The notes: generated from the sequence alone by a model not told the origin. A DNA stretch of 64,000 nucleotides from an uncultured Bacilli bacterium (GCA_934130005.1 CAKOXD010000001.1:705-64704), one strand, 5' to 3'; numbered from the stretch's first letter, positions 3,795 to 57,536 are shown. Made by a program: numbers and translations.

Positions 3795-5024
3795 ATGATA
3801 GGAATAAAACTTTCAAAGCATAAAAAAGAAACAATGGATAAAATAGAAGAATATTTAAATCCATCTGAAGTATATTTTAAAATTGATGATACTGACTCAT
3901 TATTAGTTAATCAAAATGATATTGTATTTAAAGGAGAAAAAATAATTAAAACCAAATACGATACCTATAAACATAGTAGTATAAGTGGAATAGTAAAAGA
4001 CATAGTAACAATGACTGATTATCAAAATAATGAATCAAAATTTATTAAAATAATAAATGATTTCAAAGAAGCAAATAAATTTAAAGAACAAGACTTAAAT
4101 AATATAACAAAAGAAGAATTTATAAATAACCTAAAAGAAAATGGAATAGTAGGACTTGGAGGAGCAGGATTTCCTACATATATTAAATACGATGTTGATA
4201 ATTTTAAAACACTTATAGTAAATGCTGTTGAATGTGAACCATATATAACATCAGACTATATCACATGCTTTAATAACATAGATAAAATAGTAGAAATACT
4301 AAATTTAATAGATAAAGTGTATAATTTGAAAGAAATATTTATAGCTATTAAAATAAAAAACAGAACATTAAAAGAAAAAATAATACCATATATAGCAAAA
4401 AATAAAAAAATAAAATTGATTGAAGTACCAAATTTATATCCAATGGGATGGGAAAAATCATTAGTAAGATATATAAAACACACTGATTATAATAAACTTC
4501 CTATCGAAAAAGAAATTATAGTAAGTAATGCATCTACAATTTATTCTATATATGAATCATTAAAATATAATAAACCATTAATAGAAAAAATAGTAACAGT
4601 TAGTGGTGATAATATAGAAAATAGTACTAATATAAAACTAAAAATCGGAACAAAATTTAGTGAACTAAAAAAAATATTTAAAAATTATAAAAATGAAGAA
4701 ATGACTTTAATAACAGGTGGACCAATGATGGGAACTAGTGTAAAAACTGATGAATTTATTATACCTAATAATTTAAATTCAGTAATAGCATTCAAAAATA
4801 TAAAAGAATTTAAATCTATAACATGTTTAAGATGTGGTAAATGTAGTGATCATTGTCCAGCTAAAATATGTCCAGTTTTAGTAAAAGATAATATAGAAAA
4901 TAAAGAAGAATTAAAAAGACTAAATGTTAATAGATGTATAGAATGCGGAATATGTTCATTTGTATGTCCATCAAGAATTAATTTAAGAGAATATGTAAAA
5001 GAAGCAAAGAAAAAGGTGAAATAA
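3795..5024 (+). CDS. rnfC: Rnf complex subunit C
   Basis: Contains GLGGAGFPT and two ferredoxin-type clusters: CLRCGKCSDHCP and CIECGICSFVCP. Confidence 0.9.
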   Translation: MIGIKLSKHKKETMDKIEEYLNPSEVYFKIDDTDSLLVNQNDIVFKGEKIIKTKYDTYKHSSISGIVKDIVTMTDYQNNESKFIKIINDFKEANKFKEQDLNNITKEEFINNLKENGIVGLGGAGFPTYIKYDVDNFKTLIVNAVECEPYITSDYITCFNNIDKIVEILNLIDKVYNLKEIFIAIKIKNRTLKEKIIPYIAKNKKIKLIEVPNLYPMGWEKSLVRYIKHTDYNKLPIEKEIIVSNASTIYSIYESLKYNKPLIEKIVTVSGDNIENSTNIKLKIGTKFSELKKIFKNYKNEEMTLITGGPMMGTSVKTDEFIIPNNLNSVIAFKNIKEFKSITCLRCGKCSDHCPAKICPVLVKDNIENKEELKRLNVNRCIECGICSFVCPSRINLREYVKEAKKKVK

Positions 5025-12676: not shown

Positions 12677-13914
12677 ATGTTAGCAAATAGGAAATTCGGG
12701 GGGGTTATTTAGATAACCTAAAGAAAGGATTTACACTTATAGAGTTACTTGCAGTTATAGTGATATTAGCAATCATTGCATTAATCGCAACTCCAGTAAT
12801 ATATAGAATAATAAGTAGTTCAAGAATAAGTGCATTTAAAAATAAAATATATGCAATAGATGAAGCCGCAAATACTTATTATGAAAATATAATACTAGAT
12901 GGAGATGAAGATTTATTTACAAAAGGTGCAGATGGAATGTATTCATTAACATTAGATTTAAGTAAAGAAAGTGATTTTGAAAAATTAAATATAAAAAAAT
13001 CAGTAGAAAAAGGATTAGTAGTTATAACAGATGAAGGAAATGTATCAATAACAGCTCTTGATAATAAATTATGTGGATCAAAATATTCAAGCAGTGAAGT
13101 TATAAATATGTTAAGTATAAAAGATGATTTTTCATGTTACTTGTTAGATTCATCAAGTGAAAATATAGGAACAAATGATATATTAAAAGCAATTCAAAAT
13201 CTAAGTAATGAAGTAGAAGAATTAAAAAAATCAAACGAAGAATTAAAAACTTCAAATAATGACTTAAAAATTACTCTAAGTAATATGAATAACAATAGTA
13301 TAGGAACAAAAAATGCTTTGAATAAAATATATCCAGTAGGAAGTATATATATATCAACAACTTTAAATACAACAGATAAAGTAAAAGAAGCTTTAGGTGG
13401 AACATGGGTAGCATATGGAAGTGGTAGAGTACTTAGAGGAACGACTGGTGAAGCGAATGTAACAGGTGGAACAACTGGAAATATCTCATTAACAGCTGAT
13501 AATCTTCCAAGTCATAGACACTCATATACACCAGCAGGAAGTGTTACAAGTACATTTACAGGAACTGCAGTAAATACAGGAAATCAATCGGCTGATCATG
13601 CACATTATTTCAGTGCTACAACAAGTTCAACGGGTATACAATATGCTATAGGAAATCTACAATATTTAGCAAATGGTAATACATACCCAGATTTTAGATA
13701 TACTGGTTCTGGGACAGCTGGAGGTCATACACATACAGTAAGTGGATGGACAGGAGGAGTAAACTCAAATCATACACATCAAGTAACAGCAAAAGGTACA
13801 GTATCAAGTTCATTTACAGGATCAGCTAGCAATACAGGATATGTAGGAAATAATACTTCATTTAGTGTATTAGATCCATATATAACAGTTTATATGTATA
13901 AAAGAACTGAATAG
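12677..13914 (+). CDS. Type IV prepilin fused to a coiled coil and a phage tail-collar/baseplate-fibre-like tip domain. As sequenced, it is frameshifted relative to its ATG.
   Basis: The in-frame sequence KKGFTLIELLAVIVILAIIALIATP lies upstream of the track start (GTG 12760). It has a Cys-Cys pilin loop and the coiled coil NEVEELKKSNEELKTSNNDLK. The tip domain has YPVGSIYIS..GGTW, four HxH motifs (SHRHS, DHAHY, GHTHT, NHTHQ) and ends PYITVYMYKRTE. Confidence 0.75.
12698..12704 (+). repeat. G7 homopolymer tract between the ATG and the prepilin motif
   Basis: It is the longest G or C run I saw in this AT-rich window. It sits 21 nt after ATG 12677. Confidence 0.9.
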
Positions 13915-31677: not shown

Positions 31678-31705
31678 TTTACATTTAAAAAAAATATGTT
31701 ATAAT
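31678..31705 (+). promoter_or_regulatory. Putative sigma-A promoter with an extended -10, upstream of the pilC-pilD-pilin operon
   Basis: TTTACA, a 16-nt spacer, then TGtTATAAT. Confidence 0.45.
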
Positions 31706-31736: not shown

Positions 31737-33725
31737 ATGGTGTTTTACATGAAAAATGAAAATAAAAATAAATCTAATTTTTCAATTGTAAAATTATTTT
31801 TCTATCCAATTAAAGGTCTTTACTTTATATTATATTTAATATATTCATTCTTTAAATACTCATTTAAAGGACTAGAATGCTTATTAAGTATTAACTTTTC
31901 AATTATAAAGAAAGCTTTATATGGAATACTATTTATATGTGTTTGTATATTTGATATATTTAAATTAATAGGTAAAACTATATTAAAACCTTTTAAGAAA
32001 AAGAAAGTAAAAAATAAAAAAACGGTTAAAATAGAAAAAGATACAAAACAAGAAAGTAAAAAAGAAAAAGTAAAAAAAATAAAAAAGAAAAAAGAAGAAA
32101 ATAAAGATGTAATTAATAAAAAAGAATTAAAAAAACAACAAATAGAAGAATTAGCTAAAAATTTTATAGAGCAAAAAGAAAAAGAAAAACAAGAAAAAGA
32201 AAGATTACTTGAAATTAAAAATAAGAAAAAACAAGAAGAGCAAAAAGAAAAGAAAGAAAGATTACGTAAGAAAAAAATAAATGAAGAAGCATATGTTAAT
32301 GAAAATGTTAAAATAGAAAAACCAACTATAAGTATGCAAATAAAAAATCTATTCAAAAAAATAGGTATGGTATTTGTATCAATTGGTTCTAAAATAACAA
32401 ATAACTCTTTTTCTAAAAATAGAAGAAATAAAAAAGATATGAAGCGTCAAGCATTACTTATAGATTTTGAAGGTGAAGACGCTAAAAAATCCGAAAAAAA
32501 ATTATTATATGAATATGTAGCAAAAGATAAAAATGGAAAAATAATAAAAGATTACTTTAATGCTTATTCTAAAGTAGAAGTTCATTCTTATTTACTTAGC
32601 GAAGGTTATGAAGTATATAGTATAAAAACTAATAAATTTATTCAATTTTTCCATAAAAATAGTAATACAAATAAAACAAGATTTAAAAACAAAGATCTTA
32701 TATTCTTTTTAACACAATTGTCAACTTATATTAAAGCAGGTATTCCATTAGTTGAATCACTTAGAATAATATCAAGACAATATAAGAAAAAAGCATATCA
32801 AAAAATATTTAGATCAGTAATTTATGAATTAACTATAGGAGAAAACTTTAGTTCAGCTATGGAAAAACAAAACGTTGCTTTTCCTAAATTACTTATAAAC
32901 ATGGTTAAAACAGCTGAAATGACAGGTTCGCTTCCAGAAGTATTAGATGATATGGCAAATTATTATACAGAAGCCGAAGAAACCAGAAAACAAATGGTAA
33001 CAGCTATGACATATCCTACAATTGTATTTTTATTTGCTATTGCTGTTATGATTTTCATAATGGTATATGTAGTACCACAATTTGTTGAAATATTTGAAAC
33101 AATGGATACAAAATTACCTGGTATTACACTTATGATATTAAATTTAAGTTCATTCTTAACACATTATTATATTTTCATAATAATAGCTGTCGTAGCATTC
33201 GTTACATTATTTATCGTTAGCTATAAAAAAATAAGAGGATTTAGAACAATGTGTCAATGGATAATGATGCATATACCAATTATAAATAACACTATCATTT
33301 ATAATGAAGTTACAATGTTTACAAAAACATTCTCATCATTATTAGCTCATAATGTTCCAATAACTGATTGTATGGAAATATTAAATAAAATAACAAATAA
33401 TGAAATTTATAAAATGCTTATTTTAGATACTATTACTAACTTAGCAAGAGGTGGTAAAATATCTGATGCATTTAAAGATCATTGGGCTTTTCCAGTTCCA
33501 GCTTATGAAATGATTGTAACTGGAGAAATGACTGGTGAATTAGCAGAAATGATGGGTAAAGTATCATCATATTATCAAAATTTACATAAAAACTCAGTTA
33601 CAAGAATTAAAACATTTATTGAACCAGCACTTACTATTTTCTTAACATTTGGAGTTGGTGTAATCTTATTATCAATTATTGTACCAATGTTTAGTATGTA
33701 TTCTGCAGTTCAAGAAATGGGATAG
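31737..33725 (+). CDS. pilC: Type IV pilus / T2SS platform protein (GspF/PilC family) with an N-terminal extension of about 250 aa
   Basis: The two GspF repeats start near LYEYVAKDKNGK. The N-terminal extension has two TM helices and a long K/E-rich tract. Confidence 0.85.
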   Translation: MVFYMKNENKNKSNFSIVKLFFYPIKGLYFILYLIYSFFKYSFKGLECLLSINFSIIKKALYGILFICVCIFDIFKLIGKTILKPFKKKKVKNKKTVKIEKDTKQESKKEKVKKIKKKKEENKDVINKKELKKQQIEELAKNFIEQKEKEKQEKERLLEIKNKKKQEEQKEKKERLRKKKINEEAYVNENVKIEKPTISMQIKNLFKKIGMVFVSIGSKITNNSFSKNRRNKKDMKRQALLIDFEGEDAKKSEKKLLYEYVAKDKNGKIIKDYFNAYSKVEVHSYLLSEGYEVYSIKTNKFIQFFHKNSNTNKTRFKNKDLIFFLTQLSTYIKAGIPLVESLRIISRQYKKKAYQKIFRSVIYELTIGENFSSAMEKQNVAFPKLLINMVKTAEMTGSLPEVLDDMANYYTEAEETRKQMVTAMTYPTIVFLFAIAVMIFIMVYVVPQFVEIFETMDTKLPGITLMILNLSSFLTHYYIFIIIAVVAFVTLFIVSYKKIRGFRTMCQWIMMHIPIINNTIIYNEVTMFTKTFSSLLAHNVPITDCMEILNKITNNEIYKMLILDTITNLARGGKISDAFKDHWAFPVPAYEMIVTGEMTGELAEMMGKVSSYYQNLHKNSVTRIKTFIEPALTIFLTFGVGVILLSIIVPMFSMYSAVQEMG

Positions 33726-33734
33726 GAGAGAAGT

Positions 33735-34502
33735 ATGGAAATATATTATGCAATTGTTTTCTTCATTTTTGGCACAATTTTAGGTTCATTTTATAATGTA
33801 GTTGGTTATAGACTTCCAAGAGGAGAATCAATTGCCTTTCCAGCTAGCCACTGTACCAAATGTGGACATAAACTTACACCATTTGAACTAATTCCAATAA
33901 TATCTTTTTTACTACAAAAAGGTAGATGTACTAAATGTGGCGATAAAATATCATGGTTTTATACAATATTTGAATTTGCAACAGGAATTCTTTTTGCTAT
34001 TTCATATTTAGTATTTGGAATATCAATAGATTTATTAATAGTACTAACATTTATATCTATGCTTTTAATAGTAATAATAAGCGATTATCAAACTATGATT
34101 ATTCCTGATGAATTATTAATTACTACAGTTATATTATTGATGATAGAAATATTTTTAAAAAGTGGTATAACCGGATTATTAACATCACTACTAAACGGAT
34201 TAATAATGTTTACTATTATGTTTTTAATAAAAAAAATAGGTGATTTTATATTTAAAAAAGAATCAATGGGTGGTGGAGACATAAAACTTATGTTTATATA
34301 TGGTATGGTCTTAGGGTGGCCTACATCATGTATATCTATTTGCTTCGCATCATTTATAGGATTACCTGTATCATTAATATTAATAAAAAAATTAAAAAAT
34401 CACGAAATACCATTTGGACCATTTTTAGCAATTTCAGCAATTATAATGGTACTATTTAAAATAGATTTCAATTGGGTTTTAAATTTACTAAGTGAAATAT
34501 AA
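33735..34502 (+). CDS. pilD: Prepilin peptidase (A24 family)
   Basis: Contains the zinc-finger pairs CTKCGH and CTKCGD and the catalytic-Asp contexts IISDYQ and GGGDIKLM. Confidence 0.9.
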   Translation: MEIYYAIVFFIFGTILGSFYNVVGYRLPRGESIAFPASHCTKCGHKLTPFELIPIISFLLQKGRCTKCGDKISWFYTIFEFATGILFAISYLVFGISIDLLIVLTFISMLLIVIISDYQTMIIPDELLITTVILLMIEIFLKSGITGLLTSLLNGLIMFTIMFLIKKIGDFIFKKESMGGGDIKLMFIYGMVLGWPTSCISICFASFIGLPVSLILIKKLKNHEIPFGPFLAISAIIMVLFKIDFNWVLNLLSEI

Positions 34503-34538
34503 ATCTTAAATTTATATTTTTTTAAAGGAGAGAATATT

Positions 34539-34988
34539 ATGAAGAAAAATTTCAAAATTATAATGACCATTATAATAACTGCTATTATTTGTACAAGTGG
34601 AACAGTATATGCTGTATCATACATGGCTAAAGATATTAAGTATAAAGATAAAACTGTAGAAGATGCTCTAAATGAATTATATAGTAATTCAAATAATTCT
34701 ATCAGTAATGAAGATTTAGCAAAAATACTAAATGAAAAAGAGTTTAAGGGAATAAGTTCTGCTAATTCAACAATGACTGTAACTAAAGGAAAATATTATA
34801 TTATTTCATATGCTAGAATAAATAGTAATAGTGAAACAACAATTACATCAGGTGCTGAAGTATTAAAGCAAAGCGATTCATTTACTGGCGGTAGTAATTC
34901 TTTACGTATATATTTAGTAAAAGCTACTGATTCAAAAATTACATTTTCAGTAAAAACTGGGAATATTGTAACATATATCGAATTATAA
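34539..34988 (+). CDS. Secreted protein with a conserved N-terminal KDIKYKDKTVEDALNELYS module and a variable beta-rich C-terminus
   Basis: It has a Sec-type signal peptide ending TVYA. Its first ~50 residues are paralogous to those of 35508..35948. Confidence 0.6.
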   Translation: MKKNFKIIMTIIITAIICTSGTVYAVSYMAKDIKYKDKTVEDALNELYSNSNNSISNEDLAKILNEKEFKGISSANSTMTVTKGKYYIISYARINSNSETTITSGAEVLKQSDSFTGGSNSLRIYLVKATDSKITFSVKTGNIVTYIEL

Positions 34989-35007
34989 TCTTTAAGGAGA
35001 GAATATT

Positions 35008-35499
35008 ATGAAAAAAAGAGGTTTTACATTAATAGAACTATTAGCAGTTATAGTGATATTAGCAATTATCGCATTAATCGCAACACCAATAATATTAAAC
35101 ATGATAAATAATGCAAGAAAAAGTGCAGCAGTAGATAGTGCATACGGATATATAGAAGCAGTTGAATATAATAATTCAATGAATATGATAAACAAAGATA
35201 AATATCCATTAATAGAAGATGGAGAAGATATTGATATAAGTACAATAACAAATATAAATATTAAAGGAACAAAACCTGATAGTGGTAAAATATCAATAAG
35301 TAAAAAAAGAGTAGTTAGTGCATCATTATGTATAAGTGGATATACTGTAGAATATGACTCTAAAAAAGCAGAAGCCATAGGTAAATGTAATGAAACAAGT
35401 GATAAAATTGATTCCTCAAACGTATCATTTACTCCAAGTGATTCTAGTTGGAATGTAAATACAGTCGAAGAAGCACTTAATTATTTATATGAGAATTAG
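35008..35499 (+). CDS. Type IV pilin (class III signal peptide), probably the major pilin
   Basis: Begins MKKRGFTLIELLAVIVILAIIALIATP. It has a C-terminal Cys pair and ends NVNTVEEALNYLYEN. Confidence 0.88.
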   Translation: MKKRGFTLIELLAVIVILAIIALIATPIILNMINNARKSAAVDSAYGYIEAVEYNNSMNMINKDKYPLIEDGEDIDISTITNINIKGTKPDSGKISISKKRVVSASLCISGYTVEYDSKKAEAIGKCNETSDKIDSSNVSFTPSDSSWNVNTVEEALNYLYEN

Positions 35500-35507
35500 G
35501 TGATATA

Positions 35508-35948
35508 ATGAAAAAAATAAACAAAAACTTCATATTTGGAATATTAATTGGATTATTATTAAGTACAGTCACTGTATATGCTGCAAATACTTACTTAGCA
35601 AGTAATATAAAATATAAAAACACAAACGTAGAAGATGCTTTAAATGAATTATACAGTAGTAATTGTATAAATGGATCTTTTGAGCATATATCAAATACAC
35701 AAATTAATTATAAATTTAAATTTGTACCAAGCAAATTAATAGCAACATTTAATTTATCTGGTGGTAAAGTTATAATATTTTATTCTAAAGAATATGATGG
35801 TACACTTCGTAGTATTTCTACATATAATCCAAGCATAATATCTGAATCTGGAATATTTATAGAAAATGATACTATTAAAAGTGAAATTTCAAATACATAT
35901 ATCACTTATAAAGAACAATATAATGTTAATTATACAATTTGCAAATAA
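35508..35948 (+). CDS. Secreted protein with a conserved N-terminal SNIKYKNTNVEDALNELYS module and a variable C-terminus
   Basis: It has a signal peptide ending TVYA. Its N-terminal module matches that of 34539..34988. Confidence 0.6.
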   Translation: MKKINKNFIFGILIGLLLSTVTVYAANTYLASNIKYKNTNVEDALNELYSSNCINGSFEHISNTQINYKFKFVPSKLIATFNLSGGKVIIFYSKEYDGTLRSISTYNPSIISESGIFIENDTIKSEISNTYITYKEQYNVNYTICK

Positions 35949-35976
35949 CAAAAAAGAGCTACTTATGTAACTCTTT

Positions 35977-37185
35977 TTATAATATTTCATCTATTCTTTC
36001 ATATATACTTTTTAAACTTCTTTCATATTTGCTTGTTTCTTTAGGTATATAATATTTTTTACCTTTTAAGTTATTTGGCAAATACTGTTGTTTTACAATG
36101 CTATTTGGATAATCATGAGGGTATTTATAATCTGGAGAATTTGTTTTAATATGATCAGGTATATTACCAATATTACCTTTATAAATATCATTTAAAGCAT
36201 TATCTAAAGCAACGTGACCACTATTTGATTTAGGAGATAAAGCCATCTCTATTATCATATCACCTAAAGGAATTCTTGCTTCTGGAAGTCCCAATCTTTC
36301 ACAGGCGTTAATACATGCATCAACTTTAGGTCCAATAGATGGATTAGCAAGTCCAATATCTTCATATGCAATAACAGTCATTCTTCTATATATGATATCC
36401 AAATCACCAGCATCTATAAGTCTAGCTAAATAGTGAAGTGATGCATTAACATCACTACCTCTAATAGATTTTTGAAAAGCACTAATATTATCATAATGTC
36501 CACTCTCATCATTGTCATAAAAAGATACAGGCCTATTATTAATATTTTTTATAACATCTAAAGTAATATGAAAATCGTTAGTAGAATAATAAGCAACTTC
36601 AATTAAATTATATGCATATCTAACATCACCATTTGATAATTTAGCAATATATTCTATAACATTCTCATCAATTTTAAGATTTTCTAAATAATTTCCTTTA
36701 ATAACCTTATTAATAGCTTTAATAACTTCATCATTGCTTAAAGATTTAAGTTCAAAAATTTGACATCTACTTCTAATAGCAGGATTAATTTTGTGATATG
36801 GATTAGAGGTAGTCATACCAATTAAAGTTATTAAACCACTTTCTAAATAAGGAAGTAATAAATCTTGTTTATCTTTATTTAATCTATGAATTTCATCCAT
36901 TAAAACAACTAAACCATTATACATTTTAGCTTCTTCAATTACGATATCAAAATCTTTTTTATTATTAATAACAGCATTAAGCATCCTATATCTTAAATTT
37001 AATTCATTTACAATAGCAAGAGCTAATGTAGTTTTACCAATACCAGGATTTCCATATAAAATCATAGAAAATATTTTTTTATTATTAACCAGATTTCTAA
37101 TCACTTTATTTTCACCAATTAAATGACTTTGTCCAATAACATCATCTAATTTTTCAGGTCTTAATTTAATTGCTAAAGGTTTCAT
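35977..37185 (-). CDS. rarA: Replication-associated recombination protein A (AAA+)
   Basis: Contains MKPLAIKLRP, Walker A (GNPGIGKTT) and the MgsA C-terminal domain. Confidence 0.92.
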   Translation of the reverse strand: MKPLAIKLRPEKLDDVIGQSHLIGENKVIRNLVNNKKIFSMILYGNPGIGKTTLALAIVNELNLRYRMLNAVINNKKDFDIVIEEAKMYNGLVVLMDEIHRLNKDKQDLLLPYLESGLITLIGMTTSNPYHKINPAIRSRCQIFELKSLSNDEVIKAINKVIKGNYLENLKIDENVIEYIAKLSNGDVRYAYNLIEVAYYSTNDFHITLDVIKNINNRPVSFYDNDESGHYDNISAFQKSIRGSDVNASLHYLARLIDAGDLDIIYRRMTVIAYEDIGLANPSIGPKVDACINACERLGLPEARIPLGDMIIEMALSPKSNSGHVALDNALNDIYKGNIGNIPDHIKTNSPDYKYPHDYPNSIVKQQYLPNNLKGKKYYIPKETSKYERSLKSIYERIDEIL

Positions 37186-56045: not shown

Positions 56046-57536
56046 ATGTTAAAAAAATTTGATTTTGACAAAGTCCCTGTAGTTGAAATTGTCAATGATA
56101 TATTAGTTGACAGTAGTAAAAGAGGTGCAAGTGATATTCACTTCGATCCTCATGAAGATTTCATGCTTATTAGAATACGTATAGATGGTTCTTTAATTGA
56201 TTATGCTGAAGTACCAAATGGTATAAAAAAGAATCTTATAACTCGTATTAAAATTATATCTGGTATGAATATAACTGAATCAAGATTACCACAAGATGGT
56301 GCTATAAAGCAAACACTTCAAGGTATTGATTTAGACCTTCGTGTTTCTTGCTTACCTACCTTAGAAGGTGAAAAAATAGTTATTCGTATTCTTGACTATT
56401 CAATGAGCCAAGCAGGTCTTGAAACATTAGGTTTTAGTGAAGAAAATTATGAAAAAGTTATGAGAATGATAACAGCTCCAAATGGTATTATTTTAGTTAC
56501 AGGTGCTACTGGTAGTGGTAAATCAACTACTGTATACTCTATTTTACAAAGACTAAATAAAGAAGATACAAATATAATTACAGTTGAGGATCCAATAGAA
56601 ATGAATATTGAAGGTGTTAACCAAGTTCAAACAAACAGTGAAATTGGTCTTACATTTGCTAATGCATTACGTTCTATTTTACGTCAAGACCCTAATATAA
56701 TAATGATTGGAGAAATTCGTGATACTGAAACTGCTAAAATAGCTGTCCGTGCCTCTATTACTGGTCACTTAGTATTATCTACAATCCACACAAATAACTC
56801 ACTTAATACAATTGAACGTTTACTTGATATGGATGTTGAAAGATACTTACTTGCAAGTGCTTTAACAGGTATAATTTCTCAAAAATTAGCTCGCCGCTTA
56901 TGTCCAAAATGTTCTAAGAAAAGACCTACTAATGATTATGAAAAAGATTTATTTAAAAAAGTTCTTAACCGTGATATAGAAGAAGTATATACTGTAGAAG
57001 GTTGTGAAGAATGCGGTAATGGATATAAGGGACGTATCGCAATTCATGAAGTCTTACTTGTTAATCAAGAGATAAAAGATGCGATTAGTAGTAATTTAAG
57101 AAAGGATAAATTAAGAGAACTAGTATATAGAAATGATGTTACTACTCTACTTCAAGATGGTCTTGAAAAAGTTGTAGAAGGAAAAACAACTGTAGAAGAA
57201 ATATTAAAAATAATAGAACTTGATAATGATGATAAAGCAACTGAAGGTGAATATGATTTAAAAGATGCATTAGATTTAACTAATATTTCTAAAACCGGTC
57301 ATAAAGAAAAACATGAAACAGAACTAGAACAAACAGAAGACTTCTTAAAAGAATTAAAAGCTGACGAAATGAAAACTGACGAAGTAAAAGATAATAAAAA
57401 TGTCACAAAAGATACTTCTACTGATATAAAAGATAATTTAGATAACATAAATAATTTACTTAAAGATATAAATAGTAATACTAAAAAAGAAACAAAAAAA
57501 GATCCATTAGATGATCTATTAGATATACAATTTTAG
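56046..57536 (+). CDS. pilB: Type IV pilus / T2SS assembly ATPase (GspE/PilB family) with a long charged C-terminal tail
   Basis: Contains Walker A (GATGSGKST), Walker B (IIMIGEIRD) and the His box (GHLVLSTIHTN). It has the tetracysteine CPKC...CEEC and about 100 aa of D/E/K-rich tail. Confidence 0.9.
   Translation: MLKKFDFDKVPVVEIVNDILVDSSKRGASDIHFDPHEDFMLIRIRIDGSLIDYAEVPNGIKKNLITRIKIISGMNITESRLPQDGAIKQTLQGIDLDLRVSCLPTLEGEKIVIRILDYSMSQAGLETLGFSEENYEKVMRMITAPNGIILVTGATGSGKSTTVYSILQRLNKEDTNIITVEDPIEMNIEGVNQVQTNSEIGLTFANALRSILRQDPNIIMIGEIRDTETAKIAVRASITGHLVLSTIHTNNSLNTIERLLDMDVERYLLASALTGIISQKLARRLCPKCSKKRPTNDYEKDLFKKVLNRDIEEVYTVEGCEECGNGYKGRIAIHEVLLVNQEIKDAISSNLRKDKLRELVYRNDVTTLLQDGLEKVVEGKTTVEEILKIIELDNDDKATEGEYDLKDALDLTNISKTGHKEKHETELEQTEDFLKELKADEMKTDEVKDNKNVTKDTSTDIKDNLDNINNLLKDINSNTKKETKKDPLDDLLDIQF

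Follow-up and report, generated by a model that had tools for sequence, protein, structure and literature searches.

Type IV pili of monoderms can draw adhesive specificity from modular pilins, as in Streptococcus sanguinis, where PilB carries a vWA module and PilC a lectin module (PMC8179133, PMC9934059). Here, we describe a pilin locus in a 64,000-nucleotide stretch of DNA from an uncultured Bacilli bacterium (GCA_934130005.1, CAKOXD010000001.1:705-64704; the window, in what follows), in which a type IV pilin gene is flanked by two small genes, ORF1 and ORF3, encoding putative secreted proteins. A motif of ~25 residues, which we call the module, is common to all three products: it closes the pilin at its C terminus and opens the predicted mature forms of ORF1 and ORF3, ahead of a distal head domain. 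We tentatively interpret the pilin together with ORF1 and ORF3 as a split, non-covalent modular type IV pilin, a reading whose chances we judge to be slightly below even.

Such an arrangement would resemble the S. sanguinis modular pilins in that a pilin-borne binding module gives the pilus its adhesive specificity and in its lectin-type heads. In contrast to those proteins, the head is here a separate, predicted Sec-exported polypeptide that is no substrate of prepilin peptidase, only the ~25-residue motif is common to the head and the pilin C terminus, any attachment would lack a covalent bond, and heads are exchanged as gene cassettes. Covalent modular examples are provided by a pilin-fiber fusion gene at 12.7 kb in the window, by the protein P0038, and by the second pilin of a related locus, L098. 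If a modular type IV pilin is taken to be one polypeptide, the gene at 12.7 kb and P0038 each qualify, whereas the pilin, ORF1, and ORF3 are three separate genes, each with its own ribosome-binding site and stop codon.

The junctions between phage tail fibers and their receptor-binding proteins offer a second comparison, since they contain the same repeat and combine a conserved proximal part with variable distal heads (phiCD508 gp67/gp68, PMC11948020; PHROG 2137). In phiCD508, the tail fiber gp67 is followed by gp68, predicted to be a receptor-binding protein, with no resolved structure for either (PMC11948020). The phage repeat can mark the end of the proximal fiber (phiMMP04 gp22) or the start of the distal binding protein (FP_Taranis gp68). 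Unlike phage fibers, the system considered here consists of a type IV pilus and chromosomal genes with no virion, and each protein has one copy of the module instead of many. The cohesin-dockerin system of cellulosomes is alike in concept only, in that a short conserved module tethers secreted proteins with diverse catalytic or binding domains to a scaffold; the sequences are unrelated, and both partners would here carry the same module. Finally, the PilY1/PilC tip adhesins of Gram-negative bacteria and the cargo of type II secretion are cases in which a Sec-exported protein other than a pilin joins, or is moved by, a pilin-based filament. Those proteins share no homology with the ones described here and bind minor-pilin tip complexes via large domains, with no motif in common with the pilin.

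According to our model, the operon pilC-pilD-ORF1-pilin-ORF3 would supply a pilin with a C-terminal module together with two Sec-exported heads that carry the module at their N termini. Sec export and signal-peptidase cleavage would expose the N-terminal module of the head protein, which could then form a parallel pair with its counterpart exposed at the pilin C terminus. This pairing would restore the order of pilin body, module, and head that is found within a single chain in other organisms, and the pilus would thereby display exchangeable lectin-like or receptor-binding heads. If correct, the model would represent a new route to the adhesive specificity of type IV pili, with separate, exchangeable secreted heads held by a tiny shared connector. 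It would also offer a starting point for studying how a prevalent but uncultured gut clade with reduced genomes attaches to hosts or glycans, and assign a role to an abundant, uncatalogued phage tail-fiber repeat found in thousands of protein clusters. A connector of 25 residues could, moreover, be useful for phage host-range engineering or protein display.

The pilin, its two neighbors, and their common module

The central gene of the locus encodes a type IV pilin with a class III signal peptide (Table 1). Its C terminus reads ...SSNVSFTPSDSSWNVNTVEEALNYLYEN, in which the module occupies the last ~29 residues and is recognized by the module profile at E = 4e-15. Homologs of the pilin number in the thousands, and in at least 36 of the best 120 the module (domain E ≤ 0.01) is located no more than 6 residues from the C terminus. 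The module stands at the extreme C terminus in a family of pilins of ~155-180 residues from metagenome-assembled genomes (MAGs) of gut Bacilli/Mycoplasmatota. An AlphaFold2 model of the pilin, derived from 38 module-ended pilins, has a lollipop fold with a predicted local distance difference test (pLDDT) score of 84.8. The α1 helix comprises residues 8-59 and is followed by a β-sheet (72-126), a less confident region (127-152), and a terminal helix (153-162). As the module lies past the last strand of the sheet and its model confidence is below that of the core, it would fit an exposed appendage added after the pilin fold. A Foldseek comparison of the model with the PDB returned no match below E = 1. 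Separately, one pilin subfamily (P0125, P0137, and P0145) contains two cysteines within the module (...NNC(T/E)xVxCALNELY), which suggests a disulfide stapling the loop to the helix. A paper on a TANB77 pilin, considered as relevant literature, turned out to be unrelated.

ORF1 starts with the putative signal peptide MKKNFKIIMTIIITAIICTSGTVYA and continues with VSYMAKDIKYKDKTVEDALNELYSNS as its mature start; the corresponding parts of ORF3 are MKKINKNFIFGILIGLLLSTVTVYA and ANTYLASNIKYKNTNVEDALNELYSSN. By inspection, the n-, h-, and c-regions can be laid out as MKKNFK-IIMTIIITAIIC-TSGTVYA/V in ORF1 and as MKKINKN-FIFGILIGLLL-STVTVYA/A in ORF3, where the slash marks the predicted cleavage site. 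This layout and the V-Y-A cleavage motif point to N termini of the Sec/signal peptidase I (SPase I) type, which would be cleaved. After the signal peptide, the module region reads VSYMAKDIKYKDKTVEDALNELYS in ORF1 and ANTYLASNIKYKNTNVEDALNELYS in ORF3, and the (S/T)VYA motif is kept across the paralogs, with a constant gap of 3-4 residues to the module.

The N termini of ORF1 and ORF3 could alternatively be uncleaved pilin-like anchors, through which both proteins would enter the filament at its base or tip, with the module as a spacer. The hydrophobic stretch of ~20 residues is indeed similar in length to the α1-N segment of a pilin, and an AlphaFold2 model of ORF3 contains a helix at residues 6-32 (low confidence). 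We nevertheless regard this alternative as highly unlikely, because the G-1/F+1/E+5 prepilin motif is absent from both proteins and because the canonical n/h/c layout, the conserved (S/T)VYA, and the constant spacing in all paralogs are typical of SPase I substrates. ORF1 and ORF3 were also rejected as pilins in their own right, as they lack the G-F-T-L-x-E motif and have no N_methyl match at E ≤ 1.

The likeness between ORF1 and ORF3 (BLASTP, 4e-11) is confined to the signal peptide and the module, and the alignment stops near residue 94. The two heads have no significant similarity to each other by BLASTP, consistent with the initial annotation, which had described the parts beyond the module as unrelated. 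Both heads are orphans: no relative of ORF1 was found in Pfam, NCBIfam, or the PDB, and a search for ORF3 homologs in 5.8 billion proteins recovered only ORF3 itself. The model of ORF3 suggests an all-β head, at a low confidence (pLDDT 54) that led us to leave it out of the fold search.

Alignments divide the ~25-residue module into a short strand, (D/N)(V/I)x(Y/F), and a helix, (T/N)VxxA(L/I)(D/N)xL(Y), joined by a loop of 2-12 residues. Scanning all 64 kb in six frames for cores of the type V[EQK][EDGQSN]A[LI][NDE]xL yields three only, namely those of ORF1, the pilin, and ORF3, and a profile built from the window copies scores them at E values from 1e-10 to 1e-15 among ~12,000 open reading frames (ORFs). 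The copies that the initial annotation had placed in these three genes are thereby borne out, and the module is more than a chance motif of AT-rich DNA (the G+C content of the window is 22.6%). Between the cores of ORF1 and the pilin, 4 of 12 codons differ synonymously, which argues for selection on the peptide and not for recent copying of the DNA. A further copy had been assigned to the fusion at 12.7 kb (13150-13206), where two profiles detect no module in the segment ENIGTNDILKAIQNL, even when the search space is reduced to a single sequence; by its sequence, the segment reads as the start of the coiled coil.

Linkage to partner genes and exchange of heads

With the prepilin peptidase PilD as an anchor, we retrieved 80 related loci from uncultured gut MAGs labeled Bacilli, Tenericutes, or Mollicutes, including Candidatus Faecisoma (assigned by NCBI to Mycoplasmatota); one complete chromosome, of 1.54 Mb, is among them. 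Our guess is that this clade of gut Bacilli/Mycoplasmatota is RF39-like. The locus closest to the window, L010, comes from a water-deer rectum MAG and is 93% identical.

Module-ended pilins were compared in 11 loci (the window, L010, L011, L020, L092, L097-L100, L184, and L185), 10 of which have one or more adjacent genes for a protein composed of signal peptide, module, and head, referred to below as partner genes. There are two such genes in the window, L010, and L184, three in L011, and a single one in L092/L094, in each of L097-L100, and in L185. All six loci selected solely for a pilin on a long contig (L097-L100, L184, and L185) have a partner, in differing genomic neighborhoods. By comparison, none of the 13 pilins without a module in the related PilD loci has a partner neighbor, and in 80 environmental metagenome loci all 95 pilin-like ORFs lack both the module and a partner neighbor. 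The association of the module with pilin genes in relatives, on which the initial annotation had staked its docking proposal, therefore holds, with partners beside 10 of 11 module-ended pilins versus 0 of 108 others.

Wherever their family is recognizable, the heads are binding domains. The L099 head matches Phage Tail Collar (2.8e-18), that of L011 matches Laminin_G_3 (LamG; 2.5e-7), and that of L184 is assigned to F5/8 type C (discoidin) by precomputed Pfam hits, while the heads in L098, L078, and L183 are DUF6273-like. DUF6273 adopts a C-type-lectin fold that phage receptor-binding proteins employ (PMC10743442).

Comparison of the window with L010 locates the point at which heads differ. 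DNA identity is 88-100% across pilD and the signal peptide and module of ORF1; from 34692, directly past the ORF1 module, the two sequences are unalignable up to the start of the pilin gene, after which identity returns at 70-85%. Within ORF3, it amounts to ~75-80% in the signal peptide and module and to ~45-55% in the head. The break at the end of the ORF1 module indicates that the ORF1 head was swapped for an unrelated one, and heads are thus exchanged as cassettes at the module boundary. That the break coincides exactly with the module end agrees with the conserved, adaptor-like element with swappable heads that had been proposed from the window alone.

Heads of the same kind are also found in covalent form. 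P0038 consists of a pilin of the window pilin's family, a Gly/Ser linker, and a head with 41% identity (E 8e-13) to the separate partner head of L098. In L098 itself, a second pilin-like gene runs on into a DUF6273-like domain. Together with the fusion at 12.7 kb, these proteins show that like heads are found within a pilin chain as well as in separate proteins that bear the module.

Two loci show additional features. In L092 (9880-10771) and L094, the module-ended pilin is split by a frameshift, and the partner gene has an in-frame stop just past the VYATY end of the signal peptide. The split sequence is identical in the NCBI MAG and at least one independent Logan assembly (L094), and L093 carries the same P0022 protein. 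Genetic code 4 was considered as the cause of many truncated matches and rejected, as the split genes remain split under table 4, which points to frameshifts. The split genes of L092/L094 could represent a pseudogenized cassette, or else recoding. In L185 (5112-8501), the pair of pilin and partner is followed on its 3' side by a second, module-less pilin of 125 residues and by a protein of more than 1450 residues with an NPCBM (glycan-binding) domain.

The module in phage tail fibers

A profile combining the three window copies with intermediates and database fragments was run against 1.84 billion representative proteins. It matched 6178 protein clusters at E ≤ 1e-3, of which 896 pass E ≤ 1e-10, with fiber proteins reaching 1e-292; the best matches are phage tail-fiber proteins. 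The top matches have many copies, such as 54 in a protein of 5298 residues and 25 in one of 2706, and the best 150 proteins together contain 883 copies, most commonly spaced by 34 and 39 residues, with a median of 59. The phage protein P0226, for example, has three copies of 29 residues in tandem. A typical phage form is xDVTYDNTTSGLxATNVQDAIDEL. PHROG 2137 ("tail fiber protein") is matched by 39 of 62 multi-copy proteins, and others match further fiber or baseplate PHROGs.

The long-loop consensus, searched with tblastn in 50,697 phage genomes, gave 29 records, 19 of them annotated as tail fiber or tail protein; the others are mostly hypothetical or unannotated, several of them being additional entries for the same phages or for close relatives. 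This form was required, as a short-peptide tblastn with the window's own motif gave only chance matches to Vibrio phages. Variants of intermediate loop length link the short-loop form of the window with the long-loop form of phages. The window proteins, which have one module copy each, do not match phrog_2137 directly, and a profile search restricted to candidates sharing a word returned only fragments of 48-79 residues. When viral contigs were scanned with a strict DNA pattern, eight matches were obtained, of which one is a fiber protein; on reading their sequences, we rejected the remaining ones (tape-measure-like, an amidase-like lysin, and others) as helical look-alikes.

Judged by these sequence matches, the module is a very common phage tail-fiber repeat that can be internal, C-terminal, or N-terminal. 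It lies at the C-terminal end of gp22 of the Clostridioides difficile phage phiMMP04 ("tail fiber protein," 261 residues), directly before the next gene, whose counterpart in the related phage phiCD508 is gp68, and at the N terminus of a DUF6273 protein of Faecalibacterium phage Taranis (FP_Taranis gp68) that is a target of a diversity-generating retroelement (DGR). A resemblance to segments of phage fibers and tailspikes had been suggested in the initial annotation; the fiber connection is upheld, and the restriction to N termini is not. No model in Pfam-A or NCBIfam covers the module, and a text search of the literature for the motif (VQDAIDEL and variants) found no paper. Three known families were considered and rejected as its identity: BppL_N (PF18338), a 25-residue model for the N-terminal docking helix of receptor-binding proteins in lactococcal phages, has no match to the window proteins at E ≤ 1, and one multi-copy phage protein scores 23 bits against a cut-off of 25.8; dockerin (PF00404), defined by a duplicated Ca-binding loop-helix, has no match in the window proteins and only a weak, sub-threshold composite one in the phage protein P0168; and a resemblance to EF-hands is sub-threshold.

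The repeat makes up shafts and junctions of phage tail fibers, which are generally described as trimers. This suggests that the module packs side by side with copies from other chains, the property from which parallel pairing of pilin and head modules would derive. In a broader version of our model, the ~25-residue fiber repeat would be a universal self-associating joint that was co-opted in uncultured gut Bacilli/Mycoplasmatota as a plug-and-play connector of the pilus, with heads exchanged by cassette replacement, and that would also explain the connections between separate fiber and receptor-binding proteins in many phages. We consider this extension doubtful.

The phage data lend themselves to another explanation, in which the module is a shared structural cap or linker from fiber-like ancestors, folding autonomously or serving as a junction, that would stabilize any domain next to it without direct binding, and the lectin-like neighbors of the pilin are simply co-regulated with it, for example as free or wall-associated adhesins. 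Consistent with such a role, the phage unit behaves as a generic repeat at any position, with the range of spacings given above, the length of its loop varies freely, and the gene downstream of the phiMMP04 fiber has no module. A cap or linker would, however, leave three things unexplained: the placement of the motif, which terminates the pilin and opens the mature partner; the adjacency of pilin and partner in 10 of 11 loci despite different genomic contexts; and the fusion, elsewhere, of the same head to a pilin. We therefore think this explanation unlikely.

It is also conceivable that both modules bind one and the same third component, for instance a cell-wall polymer, a protein of the pilus machinery or a chaperone, or a modifying enzyme, in which case the motif would act as a tag for sorting, anchoring, or recognition. 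Among Gram-positive surface proteins, short anchoring modules at the N or C terminus are a common feature. Partner genes adjoin pilC-pilD in L020, L078, and L183, even without an adjacent pilin in L078 and L183, where a long-loop gene of signal peptide, module, and DUF6273-like head lies directly upstream of pilC-pilD. The pilin-type motif ALD(Y)LY also differs systematically from the partner-type ALN(E/D)LY. On the other hand, beyond pilC and pilD the loci conserve no gene for a candidate partner, a single unit of ~25 residues is small for wall anchoring, and the many copies per phage fiber point to self-association. A third partner accordingly seems distinctly unlikely to us.

Several points weigh against the split modular pilin that we favor. 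The case for docking of heads on the pilus is entirely genomic, comprising linkage, a shared motif, and a fusion elsewhere, and the formation of trimers is carried over from the context of fibers; module-module binding, its stoichiometry, and display on the filament would all follow from these. A Fisher test of the linkage between pilin and partner gives p of about 1e-11 or lower (computed on an 8/9 count), a value that overstates independence because the loci are phylogenetically related. The module-ended pilin of L020 has no adjacent partner, its partners being located 3.6 and 9 kb away, around pilC-pilD, and L090 contains a gene for signal peptide and module with no pilus gene within 10 kb. 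With one to three partner genes per locus, a fixed stoichiometry cannot be derived, and the pilin may or may not be the major subunit, as which it had first been described. In phiMMP04, the gene 3' of the module-ended fiber has no module at its start, so that pairing of modules is no rule in phages. Finally, a PDB sequence search with two module profiles, ORF1, ORF3, and phiMMP04 gp22 produced nothing meaningful.

Operon context and further features of the window

ORF1, the pilin gene, and ORF3 are co-directional and lie directly 3' of pilC and pilD, in a region of core chromosomal genes (rpoD, trmK, rarA, and xerD). Coordinates of all features are collected in Table 1.

Table 1. Features of the pilin locus and of related genes in the window
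Feature	Position	Strand	Basis and details
G7 tract in leader-coding region of fusion gene	12698..12704	+	Sole G/C run of at least 6 in 64 kb
Pilin-fiber fusion	12709..13914	+	Pilin α1, coiled coil, phage Gp10_C/tail domain; Gp10_C 2e-13, phrog_6465 tail protein 2.4e-12
Candidate operon promoter upstream of pilC	31678..31705	+	Best sigma-70-like match, TTTACA-16-TATAAT with TG; consensus match only
PilC-type platform protein (T2SSF)	31737..33725	+	Pfam T2SSF 8e-53
Prepilin peptidase (PilD)	33735..34502	+	Pfam A24_N_bact 2e-33, Peptidase_A24 1.6e-16
ORF1, 149 residues	34539..34988	+	Predicted Sec-type signal peptide 34539-34613 (ends TVYA), module 34620-34688, head of ~98 residues
Type IV pilin, 163 residues	35008..35499	+	MKKRG/FTLIELL; N_methyl PF07963 1.5e-8, TIGR02532 5.5e-9; module 35407-35496
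ORF3, 146 residues	35508..35948	+	Predicted Sec-type signal peptide 35508-35582 (ends TVYA), module 35592-35660, β-rich head of ~95 residues
12-bp hairpin between convergent ORF3 and rarA	35951..35978		Called on minus strand; T-run on both sides
Candidate PilB/GspE-type assembly ATPase	56046..57536	+	Motif scan only: Walker A GSGK[ST]T, N-terminal ...ASDIHFDP...

The promoter-like site 5' of pilC and the hairpin 3' of ORF3, which is likely a bidirectional terminator closing the unit, fit a single transcription unit of pilC-pilD-ORF1-pilin-ORF3; promoter-like matches in the region upstream of pilC are not more numerous than in shuffled sequences. The candidate PilB/GspE-like ATPase gene lies 20 kb from pilC-pilD, which suggests that the pilus genes are dispersed. 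A context of 19 nucleotides around the ribosome-binding site and start, AAGGAGAGAATATTATGAA, is identical in ORF1 (34522-34541) and the pilin gene (34993-35012). PilC has an N-terminal extension of ~300 residues ahead of its T2SSF domains (31737-32650), with hydrophobic segments and a stretch very rich in lysine and glutamate; L020 and L078 have extensions that are comparable in length and similar in composition.

No in-frame ATG, GTG, or TTG precedes the GFTLIELL motif of the pilin-fiber fusion at 12.7 kb. The G7 tract separates this motif from an ATG at 12677 that is out of frame; a tract of eight G would join the ATG to the pilin frame, giving MLANRKFGGGYLDNLKKG directly ahead of FTLIELL. 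At the orthologous site of L101, the closest relative MAG (~3990-4030), the tract is G9 and likewise out of frame. The tract is either a candidate switch for phase variation by slipped-strand mispairing or a homopolymer error of assembly. By BLASTP, the head of the fusion has no similarity to the Collar head of L099. In L101 (4001-6332), the pilin orthologous to the N-terminal part of the fusion is only 161 residues long, and a separate glycine-rich protein of 586 residues (PF12810, ALK_LTK_GRD) follows it in place of the coiled coil and Gp10_C part.

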